The translations under genes and the position numbers were made by a program. A stretch of 64,000 nt of DNA from Candidatus Moraniibacteriota bacterium (GTDB lineage Bacteria > Patescibacteriota > Minisyncoccia > Moranbacterales > UBA1568), in NCBI GenBank assembly GCA_016699425.1, contig CP064975.1, forward strand, positions 654,098 to 718,097, in the 5' to 3' direction. The notes under the pieces are model-generated. The model searched no databases. It was given only the letters and a program-made list of their open reading frames with translations, and was not told the DNA's origin. Shown in pieces: positions 21-10,331 of this stretch (positions within the stretch are counted from its first letter, which is position 1; each line of letters starts with the position of its first letter).

Positions 21-1124
21 TTACGAGTTATTTCTTGAAAGGATATGAATAATACCATCGTTCTTTTCTGCGCTGACACTGATCCTATCACCCGTACGAA
101 TAATCTCTGTAGCATCCGAGACCGCCACGATACACGGGATGTGAAGCTCACGACTTGTAATAGCTGCATGAGAGTTCAGTCCGCCCTGATTTGTAATAAT
201 CGCCACAGCTTTTCGTAAAATCACCATAAACTGTACCGTCGTATTTTCAGTAACGAGGATTTCTCCCTCCTGCATTTCAGCGATTTGATTTTCGACAGCA
301 CGGAAGTCATCGCTGTAATCGGCCAATATCACCCGCGCTCTCCCTTCAACCTTACCGAGGCTCGCGCTCGTGCCATGAAGCTCTCTGGTATCCAGATTTT
401 TTGGACGAAATTGTTCTATGACTTTTTTTGTTTCTTCAAAATTAGGCTCTTCGATTTTCCCGCCTGTTCCATACAAAATGTACGCTCTTTGCCGTCGCTC
501 TACAATTTCTTGTTCGGGCATCTTTCCAGAGAAGAGATTTTTCACTTCATCCTCGGAAAAGAACTTGATATCTTGCGGGGCAACACGAAACTGCGTTGCT
601 ATCATATCAAGTACGCGGTAGAAAATATCCAAGCCAAGCTTATGCAATATTTCGCTCGAGGGAAATTTGATTTCGCCCAGTCGCTGCAAGTTATTTTGAA
701 GAAGTGTATTCTCTTTCGACTGTGAGAAGGCAAGGTCCGTAAAAATTGCTTCCGTCTTATCATGGTATACCCATATTTCTTTCAATGTAGTGGACAAGTC
801 TATCCAATCCGATTCTGTAATATTTTCCTTATCAGTAAATCGATCAATGGTCTGTCTCGCTTTTTCCAAATACACTTCGAAGTCTTTCAAATATGCATCA
901 AACTTCTCTCGGTCAGAAAAAAGTTCCAATCCCTCCTGCAATGTCCGATTCATTCCTTCTCGAAAAATAAAGCTTCGAAAAAACCCTTTATCATATATAG
1001 TCAACGTATCATGCTGACTATATTGATAAAGAAAATGCTGAGCGAACAGATACCCGATTCCTTTAAATGCAAAAAGTGGATGAAATCCCTCTTGCGTTAA
1101 AAGTGTAAAATCTGTCTTATCCAT
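21..1124 (-). CDS. Module protein: ~260 aa N-terminal domain of unknown function plus a C-terminal PEP-utilizing (swivel phosphohistidine) domain
   Basis: The C-terminus reads '...VTENTTVQFMVILRKAVAIITNQGGLNSHAAITSRELHIPCIVAV...', matching the PEP-utilizers mobile His-domain signature (GG.TSHAAI.SRE.GIP.VVG). I moved the start to the ATG at 1124 (MDKTDF...), because the ORF-track start at 1217 would overlap the upstream gene. Confidence 0.55.
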   Translation of the reverse strand: MDKTDFTLLTQEGFHPLFAFKGIGYLFAQHFLYQYSQHDTLTIYDKGFFRSFIFREGMNRTLQEGLELFSDREKFDAYLKDFEVYLEKARQTIDRFTDKENITESDWIDLSTTLKEIWVYHDKTEAIFTDLAFSQSKENTLLQNNLQRLGEIKFPSSEILHKLGLDIFYRVLDMIATQFRVAPQDIKFFSEDEVKNLFSGKMPEQEIVERRQRAYILYGTGGKIEEPNFEETKKVIEQFRPKNLDTRELHGTSASLGKVEGRARVILADYSDDFRAVENQIAEMQEGEILVTENTTVQFMVILRKAVAIITNQGGLNSHAAITSRELHIPCIVAVSDATEIIRTGDRISVSAEKNDGIIHILSRNNS

Positions 1125-1134
1125 ATGTCTTATA

Positions 1135-8930: not shown

Positions 8931-10027
8931 TAAATTTGTTCGCCTAAAACTTCTTGTGCAAATTTCGCGATACCAAACAGATTTTTGTACTCGTCGATAT
9001 CTGTCATCATTTTTCCACGGGGCAGTATGCCGTCGAGCAACGCCTTGCCGACTATCCGCTTTTTCATCTCCTCTGTCGGTTGCCAGTCAATGCCAGCGGA
9101 ATCGAACATCTTCTTCAATTGATAGCACTCTTGAAGCATTACTTTTGACTTCAGTTTCTCAAAATCCATTTTTCGAATCTCTCGGTAGAGAACCTCAGCT
9201 TTTTGCGATATCTCGCTAACCAAAATGTGAATCTGTTCGGTAGATAAGTATTTGCCGTCCGCTGTGACCGCGAACGTTCTCATCCCCTGGACAGGGACAC
9301 CACTCCTACTTATGGTGTGGCAACCGACCCCCAAGATTTCCCATTCAACACTTTCATACGTGGCATAAATGAGAATCTCTTTTATTGAGGACAGGTATTC
9401 TTTCGACCACAACTCTTTCGGCGACAAATCTGGAAAATGTCTAATGAGAAACGAACGTTCATTGCCCTCTATAGTTACCGAGTACGGGCCATAAACATCC
9501 CAACCAAAATCCGTCACAAGATCGTTGTATAATCCATGGACTAGTGAGCCCGCGGCAGTAATGAGTTGTCCGATACTTCTTGCTTTCTTCACATCCGCGT
9601 CCGTCCACTGAAGACGTTTTACAGTTTGATTGACTTCATCTTCGGAGTGATACGGATTTGATGAAATAGCAAAGGGGTCGTCAGGACAACCTTCCACCAG
9701 CATTCTCGCCAGAAAATTCACGACTAACCGACAATCATCAATGTTTTGTTCTCGATACCCCTGATAGGTGGGAATTATTTTTACGAGAATGGCCCGAATA
9801 TTGGAAGGTGGTGGCAACAGATGTCTCACTTCCTGAAAACTCTTATTCTCCAAATTTAATATGCGGATTACTTCGGCAATCCTTTTGATCCACAGGTCAT
9901 ACCACAAGGGGAAAAAATGATAAAAATCGATCGGCTGAAGCCCTTCAATGACTTGGCCTGCAAAAAGTCCAAACGTGCCTTTTGCGAATTGGTTAATCCA
10001 ATGCATAAATTTCACCTTTAGTTCCAT
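8930..10027 (-). CDS. Hypothetical protein (365 aa), no recognisable domain
   Basis: A long ORF that fits tightly, on the same strand, between the PpsA-like gene and the stand-alone swivel-domain gene. Composition is protein-like. Confidence 0.35.
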   Translation of the reverse strand: MELKVKFMHWINQFAKGTFGLFAGQVIEGLQPIDFYHFFPLWYDLWIKRIAEVIRILNLENKSFQEVRHLLPPPSNIRAILVKIIPTYQGYREQNIDDCRLVVNFLARMLVEGCPDDPFAISSNPYHSEDEVNQTVKRLQWTDADVKKARSIGQLITAAGSLVHGLYNDLVTDFGWDVYGPYSVTIEGNERSFLIRHFPDLSPKELWSKEYLSSIKEILIYATYESVEWEILGVGCHTISRSGVPVQGMRTFAVTADGKYLSTEQIHILVSEISQKAEVLYREIRKMDFEKLKSKVMLQECYQLKKMFDSAGIDWQPTEEMKKRIVGKALLDGILPRGKMMTDIDEYKNLFGIAKFAQEVLGEQI

Positions 10028-10331
10028 CCACTAAAATTCGGGAACCATCTTTTATGGTTTTCGTGGCTTCTTTAGTATTCACAACGCAGGGAATCCCCAT
10101 CTCGCGACTTAAAATGGCTGGATGTGAAGTAATCCCCCCTATATCAGTTACTATAGCCGCCGCCTTCACCATCGCCTGAACCATTGTTGGATCAGTAAGG
10201 GTAGTGACTAATATATCACCCTCACTAAAGTCAGCTGAATCATCCCCCGAAGAAAACAACCTCGCTCTACCCTCCGCTATTCCAGAATTTGCGGCCATCC
10301 CTTTGAGGATAAGTTTCTTATCTTGGTTCAT
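9993..10331 (-). CDS. Stand-alone PEP-utilizing enzyme mobile (swivel phosphohistidine) domain protein, 112 aa
   Basis: 'GDILVTTLTDPTMVQAMVKAAAIVTDIGGITSHPAILSREMGIPCVVNTKEATKTIKDGSRILVDGTKGEIY' is a complete PEP-utilizers domain with the conserved His in the TSH motif. Confidence 0.55.
   Translation of the reverse strand: MNQDKKLILKGMAANSGIAEGRARLFSSGDDSADFSEGDILVTTLTDPTMVQAMVKAAAIVTDIGGITSHPAILSREMGIPCVVNTKEATKTIKDGSRILVDGTKGEIYALD

Follow-up and report, generated by a model that had tools for sequence, protein, structure and literature searches.

Introduction

What does a cell phosphorylate with seven phosphohistidine swivel domains and a single ATP-binding domain? The question is raised by a locus in a 64,000-nt stretch of DNA from Candidatus Moraniibacteriota bacterium (contig CP064975.1, assembly GCA_016699425.1; hereafter the window, to which all positions refer), where six consecutive open reading frames (ORFs) on the minus strand, in the order P6, P5, P4, P3, P2 and P1, occupy 21..11252. 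With a probability of roughly 0.6, the locus is read here as a modular 'water dikinase' of the rifampin phosphotransferase (RPH) or phenylphosphate synthase kind, with multiple specificities and with swivel domains charged both in cis and in trans. What is new is the concatenation of two to five acceptor-plus-swivel cassettes behind one ATP-grasp domain, in dozens of shuffled types whose named examples are centred on bacteria of the candidate phyla radiation (CPR) and DPANN archaea.

One ATP-grasp head and seven swivel domains

The sole nucleotide-binding domain of the locus is the ATP-grasp (PPDK_N) head of P3 (4365..8930, 1521 aa), which occupies residues 1-320 (7971..8930) and is recognised by Pfam as PF01326 over residues 19-326 (E 4e-101). 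Its sequence is 42% identical to the ATP-grasp of the Listeria enzyme LmRPH, with K22, R117 and E297 kept and T136 replaced by Ser, and the heads of other giant proteins of this kind share 76-81% identity with it. Swivel domains of the phosphoenolpyruvate (PEP) utilizer family (PF00391, E 3e-22 to 1e-72) number one in P1 (21..1124, 367 aa), three in P2 (1135..4521, 1128 aa), two in P3 and one in the stand-alone swivel protein P5 (9993..10331, 112 aa, motif TSHPAI; E 3e-27). The motif G-G-x-x-[ST/C]-H is kept in all seven, as is the catalytic His in 387 of 387 swivels from 121 family proteins. When P3 was compared with the sequences of the PDB, only the head and swivels matched, with PpsA and RPH as the best hits and 8a8e as the closest (E 2.5e-99).

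An initial annotation, made from the DNA alone, had described this 1, 3, 2, 1 split of swivels with their phospho-His motif, a PPDK_N head restricted to the 1521-aa protein, the absence of a PEP/pyruvate triosephosphate isomerase (TIM) barrel and a helical domain of ~300 aa ahead of six of the seven swivels, and in all of these points it was right: PF01326 occurs nowhere else in the locus, and no locus ORF matches the TIM barrel PEP-utilizers_C (PF02896) in Pfam at E <= 0.01, in agreement with NCBIfam. At the same threshold P4 and P6 belong to no Pfam family. The four swivel-bearing ORFs were also said to be contiguous, which they are not, as P4 (358/365 aa) lies between the 1521- and 112-aa ORFs.

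The plainest account of such a locus would be that ordinary duplication gave rise to ppsA/ppdK paralogs, or that faulty assembly multiplied a single ppsA gene. The ATP-grasp and the swivels are indeed most similar in sequence to archaeal PpsA, and the NCBIfam PpsA score of 579.6 comes near the cut-off of 598; yet PEP-utilizers_C is missing from every ORF, the PpsA model matches only head and swivels, and the same architecture stands on hundreds of independent contigs. Moreover, the five swivel-coding DNA stretches of P3 and P2 are 64-71% identical over 238 nt, which indicates old duplications and not multiple copies of one misassembled gene. The chance that this account is correct is negligible, and both of its forms, which the initial annotation had itself named as alternatives, are refuted.

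A single array gene split by a lesion

The 1521- and 1128-aa ORFs were annotated as separate genes, but on alignment of the homolog P0079 across their junction, P3 and P2 are halves of one gene of ~2600 aa with the layout A-(H-S)x5, where A is the ATP-grasp head, H the helical domain and S the swivel. Behind the head lie module 1 (6546..7970; H1 6864..7970, which matches the family H profile, and S1 6546..6863), module 2 (4968..6545; H2 5286..6545 and S2 4968..5285), the damaged module 3 (3916..4967; H3 in two frames and S3 3916..4233), module 4 (2581..3915; H4 2920..3915 and S4 2581..2919) and module 5 (1138..2580; H5 1456..2580 and S5 1138..1455), all on the minus strand.

The two ORFs overlap by 157 nt in different frames, and the P2 frame opens only 13 codons ahead of the point at which the P3 frame becomes nonsense. 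The domain that spans this junction, H3, has its N-terminal part (4494..4967) in the P3 frame and its C-terminal part (4234..4494) in the P2 frame; in homologs it is continuous, and the H domain of P0079 matches both halves, with tblastn giving two high-scoring segment pairs in frames -3 and -2 that abut at 4488/4497 and leave 23 query residues missing. Every other member of an 80-member alignment of this H subfamily possesses a segment of ~25 residues that has no counterpart in the window and that holds the subfamily's conserved R-[ED] motif. The lesion is a deletion of ~70 nt (3n+1) with a change of frame at about 4488-4497, inside the third H domain. A 1-nt sequencing error and a programmed frameshift were both considered for the junction and rejected, because about 23-25 conserved codons are gone as well.

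If repaired, the gene would encode about 2600 aa comprising the ATP-grasp and five H-plus-swivel modules, the same layout as in the seven best homologs (2134-2533 aa). The lesion leaves an A-HS-HS protein and, if translated, an (H)S-HS-HS protein without an ATP-grasp. A further trace of the gene's history stands at the start of H2, where 'VQSRPITTL' copies the last strand of the ATP-grasp, 'IVQSRPITTL' (6500..6545 vs 7971..8000); this vestige, present in two of the 266 non-first modules of the family, suggests that the module 2 cassette formerly stood first in an A-H-S gene.

The H domain and its likeness to the rifampin-binding domain

The H domains of the window are 245-420 aa long and mostly helical with a few short strands, as judged from two AlphaFold models (H6+S6 and H5). 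H5 was modelled alone (pLDDT 91.4), so that the swivel would not dominate structural matches. The top four Foldseek matches of this model were entries of the Listeria enzyme (RPH-Lm), at probability 1.00 and template modelling (TM) scores of 0.42-0.49; beyond these the probability was at most 0.33 and the TM score at most 0.17, which makes the rifampin-binding domain (RIF-BD) of RPH the sole extensive structural match. With the whole-module model, 199 residues align to RPH. In comparisons by NCBIfam and by a module profile, the swivel and the 65-80 residues of H that precede it also align to a C-terminal stretch of ~170 residues in RPH, PigC, RedH and the PRK06241 'PEP synthase' subfamilies; the hidden Markov model (HMM) alignment covers RPH residues 697/699-867.

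The same relationship extends to the catalytic site. For this comparison the LmRPH sequence was taken from the Listeria rph gene of a PLSDB record, in which R666, E667, K670 and H825 fit the numbering of the structure paper. The H profile aligns to LmRPH with an hhalign probability of 82% (E 1e-5) over residues 651-736, placing R282 of H5 on R666. In RPH the phosphate of the product is contacted by Arg666 and Glu667, and mutants in these residues no longer carry out the second phosphotransfer (PMC4844700). Across the long-type H domains the R666-equivalent column holds R in 97, K in 30 and Q in 18 sequences, and R and K predominate at the positions equivalent to 669 and 670; the position equivalent to 667 is not generally acidic. 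Within the window, modules 4 and 5 have Arg at the R666-equivalent position, module 1 has K-D and module 2 has K-E-L-R-K (666-670). P1 keeps K153 and has Ser where the other 24 aligned members of its subfamily have Arg. The RPH analogy of the array is supported by the modelled structure and by this catalytic-site alignment; with the missing TIM barrel and the PpsA and RPH cut-offs that are not reached, the Arg/Lys on R666 supports the earlier proposal of an Rph-like layout multiplied into modules in place of a PEP synthase.

A family of modular arrays

A search of 5.8 billion proteins with P3 gave at least 8000 matches, and the best 120 of these all consist of an ATP-grasp followed by two to five H-plus-swivel modules and all end in a swivel; among these best matches to P3, two modules are found in 17 proteins, three in 74, four in 24 and five in seven. 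The named sources are Paceibacterota, Parcubacteria, Buchananbacteria, Moraniibacteriota, 'Patescibacteria group', Woesearchaeota and Nanoarchaeota, i.e., mostly CPR bacteria and DPANN archaea. An H-only profile run with HMMER against 1.84 billion representatives (50% identity) retrieved 7092 proteins at E <= 1e-3 and 2403 at E <= 1e-30; the best 147 new representatives include 92 HS, 17 HSHS, five HSHSHS and five AHS proteins as well as various longer arrays. The architecture and homology of the array are solid. The initial annotation knew of no described system of this kind: full-text literature searches likewise turned up no description of multi-swivel or multi-module dikinase arrays in CPR/DPANN organisms, and CPR 'rph-like' genes were merely counted in a resistome survey, but sequence databases hold thousands of relatives, labelled 'PEP/pyruvate-binding domain-containing protein', 'PEP synthase/PPDK' or 'rifampicin phosphotransferase'.

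Module statistics were drawn from 387 modules of 121 family proteins. The length of H is bimodal (about 200-300 aa and about 350-450 aa), and the 387 H domains fall into 81 clusters at E <= 1e-20, each occurring at any array position; the H4 type of the window, for instance, heads the array in P0093 and P0065. Even so, 323 of the 387 are recovered by an iterated profile that starts from H5, so that the H domains form one superfamily. Swivels, in turn, resemble one another according to the H domain that they follow, with a median identity of 59% within the same H type, 54% among other modules of the same protein and 52% otherwise, and all 46 modules of the H6 type carry a swivel insert that only 12 of 341 others have. 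On these two grounds H and S together constitute an evolutionary unit.

Would the acceptors be small molecules? The same machinery might instead act on macromolecules or envelope polymers (glycans, proteins or nucleic acids), the H domains serving as binding modules whose number confers avidity or processivity in place of several specificities. Glucan water dikinases use ATP-grasp and swivel-His chemistry on a polymer (PMC13553574); two or more modules of the same H cluster are repeated in 33 of the 121 family proteins; and no small-molecule pathway genes lie nearby. This proposal is nonetheless unlikely, as the sole structural relative of H is the small-molecule-binding RIF-BD, the characterised A-H-S and H-S relatives all have small-molecule substrates (rifampin, phenols, prodiginine precursors and zearalenone), and 81 H clusters fit diverse ligands better than one polymer.

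One further observation concerns translation. The swivels of the homolog P0112 have Trp at otherwise conserved Gly positions, as would be expected if a code-25 genome (UGA = Gly) had been translated with UGA = Trp.

Free HS proteins and the neighbourhoods of giant genes

P1 is a stand-alone H6+S6 protein (H6 381..1124, S6 24..380) with His319 and has the layout of the substrate/His subunit of two-component dikinases. An alternative call would make it 398 aa long (21..1217); the 367-aa start, which leaves a 10-nt gap after the P2 stop, is preferred. Free HS genes of this kind recur beside the giant genes: one follows directly in the window and in loci L001 and L003, and one gene further along in L002, and in L009 an A-H-S-S gene is followed by three separate HS genes. 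In a Patescibacteria metagenome-assembled genome (MAG) labelled Saccharibacteria (L004, 5983..12608), an A-H-S-S gene precedes three overlapping ~375-aa ORFs with one swivel each, which may reflect either serial gene fission or several frameshifts; split arrays like that of the window are thus not unique. In one genome, on a 901-kb JGI contig (L001, 1..18331), 18 kb hold a pair of giant genes (encoding 1619 and 2300 aa) and three free swivel genes (626, 375 and 472 aa), of which the 375- and 472-aa ones are confirmed to be H+S; among them are interspersed genes for an HD-domain protein, a weak His_Phos_1 match and an integrase. Near giant genes, integrases or a reverse transcriptase were noted in both L001 and L002.

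Apart from these free HS genes, which the survey of related loci proposed at the outset did bring to light, the neighbourhoods of the giant genes are varied and mostly housekeeping, and the conserved neighbours from a pathway that the survey might have supplied did not appear. This bears on a further explanation, namely that the array is a biosynthetic assembly line with a PigC/RedH-like activation or ligase function, in which transient phosphorylation of a carbonyl or hydroxyl group drives condensation. The NCBIfam alignments of the H tail plus swivel and of the ATP-grasp to PigC and RedH are of about the same quality as those to RPH, and the A-H-S layout is common to PigC and HapC (PMC13534948). 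The scores, however, fall far short of the cut-offs (374 vs 1300 for PigC and 410 vs 1350 for RedH), and no biosynthetic genes stand beside the arrays in the window or in L001-L003, which leaves an assembly line very unlikely. CPR and DPANN organisms are, besides, poor in secondary metabolism, which counts against it too.

The P6-P5-P4 unit

Upstream of the array lie P6 (10353..11252, 299 aa), P5 and P4 (8930..10006/10027, 358/365 aa). P4 overlaps P5 by 14 nt and the start of P3 by 1 nt and appears to be translationally coupled to these neighbours. The initial annotation had been right that a stand-alone swivel exists here, but had grouped it with the array; by conserved gene order, P5 with P4 and P6 is instead a separate conserved unit of Patescibacteria and not an accessory of the array. 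P4 is 100% identical to P0268 (IPJ68_03320) of a Candidatus Moraniibacteriota MAG. In six of six loci with P4 homologs (L020, L022, L023, L024, L028 and L029), a swivel gene of 105-115 aa lies directly upstream and overlaps the P4 homolog, usually by 14 nt, and the encoded P5 orthologs are 67-88% identical. No giant gene is nearby in five of these six loci, and among the giant-gene loci L001-L017 neither P4 nor P6 is a neighbour of the giant genes. P6 homologs precede the swivel-P4 pair in L024 (70% identity), L029 (46%) and L022. In L023 there is a second, paralogous pair of swivel and P4-like genes.

The closest relative of the unit is that of L024, where P6 is 70%, P5 87.5% and P4 81% identical. 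The next gene there encodes a stand-alone 312-aa ATP-grasp that ends in '...IVQSRPITTL' and is 59% identical to the P3 head, against the 76-81% that this head shares with those of other giant proteins, which suggests that in the window a stand-alone ATP-grasp gene was replaced by a giant one. P6 itself may be a divergent protein of the histidine phosphatase superfamily: its match to the N-terminal motif region of His_Phos_1 is below threshold (E 0.024), with the L024 ortholog at E 0.0019.

No relative of P4 with a known function was detected, and P4 matches nothing in the PDB, in Pfam, in the H profile or in the PpsA TIM barrel. A hidden H domain was considered and rejected (hmmsearch E 0.005 at a score of 4.5; hhalign probability 0.2-0.7%), and a divergent PEP-utilizers_C TIM barrel, proposed for its 'GLYND...VGCH' motifs, is not supported (hhalign probability <1% against two PpsA sequences, with no Pfam or PDB match). 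Of the columns in the P4 alignment (A3), 31 are invariant, with many His, Asp, Cys and Asn residues that include H37, H164, N168, D169, C236 and H237. P4 also occurs in nature fused to a swivel (P0393, 466 aa) and in tandem with itself (P0388). P4 is a candidate acceptor or catalytic partner domain for the free P5 swivel, and the conserved, occasionally fused pair of swivel and P4 suggests that phosphohistidine swivel chemistry has one more kind of acceptor domain, without recognisable relatives.

The presence of P5 in the same apparent operon also lends some colour to the notion of a phospho-relay or phosphate buffer, in which phosphate would travel from swivel to swivel or on to P5, with the H domains as structural spacers. 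There are many His carriers per ATP site, and HpeH alone catalyses phosphotransfer between substrates (PMC12167813). Against it stand the co-evolution of each swivel with its own H domain, the RPH phosphate-binding Arg/Lys kept in the H domains and the place of P5 in a separate conserved unit, usually without an array nearby; a relay is accordingly regarded as highly improbable.

Codon composition and the wider window

The GC content at third codon positions (GC3) is 0.38-0.53 in P1-P6 vs 0.59-0.73 in pyrH, proS, htrA, sufB and xseA, and the clusters of L002-L004 lie 4-7 GC points below their flanks. Together these values suggest lateral transfer of gene blocks and, for the window, that the P1-P6 block was horizontally acquired. 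The array of the window might then be a decaying pseudogene of foreign origin without present function: the deletion and frameshift remove the conserved motif of module 3, P1 no longer has the Arg otherwise invariant in its subfamily, and the codon composition sets the block apart from the housekeeping genes. About 2600 codons are open apart from the single lesion, however, and the His motif is intact in all seven swivels, as are the residues of the ATP-grasp. Split arrays (A-HS-S with separate HS genes) occur naturally and HSHS proteins without an ATP-grasp are common, so that the P3 and P2 fragments could still work. A functionless array is therefore held to be quite unlikely.

Elsewhere the window has bacterial genes that include xseA, htrA and sufB. 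The UMP kinase gene (11256..12209) passes the cut-off of the archaeal-type pyrH model and falls far short of that of the bacterial one (TIGR02076 179.9 vs 158; bacterial model 41.5 vs 243.9), although it stands in an otherwise bacterial (CPR) genome, and its 317-aa ORF, which overlaps proS, probably over-calls the start. A Mutator-family transposase (19860..20987) and a VirD4/TraG-like coupling protein with a zinc-finger domain (46787..48931) were also noted. Rfam finds a single tRNA in the window and no match inside the locus, and PADLOC reports no defence-system match for P1-P6 except a negligible JetB match for P4.

Proposed mechanism and significance

Under the favoured reading, the water-dikinase chemistry of the array is probable by homology with its characterised relatives. 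One N-terminal ATP-grasp domain would bind ATP, and a swivel His would attack the beta-phosphate to yield AMP and pyrophosphorylated histidine (His-PP), which would become His~P upon loss of the gamma-phosphate. The charged swivel would then dock on its own preceding helical H domain, the homolog of the RIF-BD of RPH, and pass its phosphate to an acceptor in the H/S cleft, aided by the Arg or Lys equivalent to RPH Arg666. Before the lesion the locus held the A-(H-S)x5 gene of about 2600 aa and then the separate H-S gene, P1. Distal modules and free HS proteins would be charged in cis via flexible linkers and in trans by transient encounter, as may be surmised from the one ATP site available to six H-S units, from the commonness of free HS and HSHS proteins and from the published two-component dikinases, which work through transient complexes (PMC12167813). 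Each cassette would have its own acceptor, given the diversity of H, its shuffling and the co-evolution of the swivels.

Several observations weigh against this reading. Module 3 is without the Arg motif, P1 has Ser at the invariant Arg, and modules 1 and 2 have Lys in place of Arg, which may mean that the copy in the window is decaying. The codon composition of the block is foreign. The H-only profile (A2) finds nothing among PDB sequences, RPH included, so that the homology between H and the RIF-BD rests on structure and hhalign. Near the arrays of the window and of L001-L003, moreover, there are no conserved pathway genes that point to an acceptor.

As to function, the array plausibly traps or inactivates diffusible small molecules in a genome-reduced symbiont. 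The authors of the HpeHI study proposed that such dikinases trap diffusible substrates by phosphorylation (PMC12167813), and, as speculation by analogy, the idea would fit scavenging symbionts. A broader reading, which is offered only tentatively, is that CPR and DPANN organisms possess a hitherto unrecognised combinatorial enzyme class in which one ATP-grasp 'charger' serves shuffled, acceptor-specific H-S cassettes, either fused or free, that phosphorylate, trap or neutralise many host-derived or environmental small molecules, with the charger perhaps feeding P4 via P5. If true, this would amount to a set of exchangeable kinase specificities, with a logic like that of nonribosomal peptide synthetase and polyketide synthase modules or of the branching from Enzyme I (EI) to HPr in the phosphotransferase system (PTS).

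The locus matters for several reasons. RPH, phenylphosphate synthase, HpeHI and PigC have so far been known only as single-module or two-component systems, and the named hosts of the arrays, whose metabolism is largely uncharted, spend 2000-2600 codons of ~1-Mb genomes on one such gene. If each cassette has its own acceptor, the family would provide a catalogue of new kinase specificities, of relevance to antibiotic inactivation, metabolite scavenging and biocatalysis, and a natural test case of one swivel-domain machine for several active sites.

Comparison with known systems

PTS Enzyme I combines a swivel His domain, into which an HPr-binding helical subdomain is inserted, with a PEP-binding TIM barrel; only the swivel of the locus matches EI models and structures, and the TIM barrel is without counterpart. 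PpsA (EC 2.7.9.2) and PPDK enzymes are the closest sequence relatives of the ATP-grasp and swivels (PRK06464, 579.6 bits), but the match to the PpsA models of NCBIfam is confined to positions ~5-342 and ~340-460 and their cut-offs are not reached (NF005057 579.6 vs 598; TIGR01418 546.7 vs 739.75); in PpsA, furthermore, the swivel precedes the acceptor domain, whereas in the array it follows the acceptor domain and there is no TIM barrel. PigC, RedH and HapC are alike in their A-H-S layout, with NCBIfam models that match the ATP-grasp head as well as the H tail and swivel, yet they are single-module enzymes, their cut-offs are far off (374 vs 1300; 410 vs 1350), and the array has no pigment-pathway context.

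The two-component dikinases HpeHI and CreHI and phenylphosphate synthase PpsAB have an HS protein (HpeH or PpsA-alpha) that is charged in trans (PMC12167813), and P1, its HS and HSHS relatives and the P2 fragment share this HS-subunit layout. Unlike in these enzymes, the ATP-grasp of the window is fused to modules 1-2 and the modules are concatenated; the hosts are CPR/DPANN symbionts and not degraders of aromatic compounds, and no catabolic genes are adjacent.

A close counterpart is RPH (RPH-Lm; PDB 5hv1 and 5fbs; PMC4844700), which likewise has an ATP-grasp, then a helical acceptor domain and then a C-terminal swivel His. The RIF-BD fold of H, the basic residue equivalent to R666 in most long-type H domains, the ATP-grasp catalytic residues and the swivel His (H825 equivalent) are all shared, as presumably is the overall reaction, ATP + acceptor + H2O -> AMP + Pi + acceptor-P. 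The H domains are only 13-18% identical to the RIF-BD and have either a short (~240 aa) or a long (~380 aa) form vs 428 aa in RPH, and the RPH cut-offs are not reached (NF041857 413.5 vs 999; NF000283 295 vs 1700). RPH is a single module of ~865 aa, whereas the array family has two to five H-S modules per ATP-grasp together with free HS proteins.

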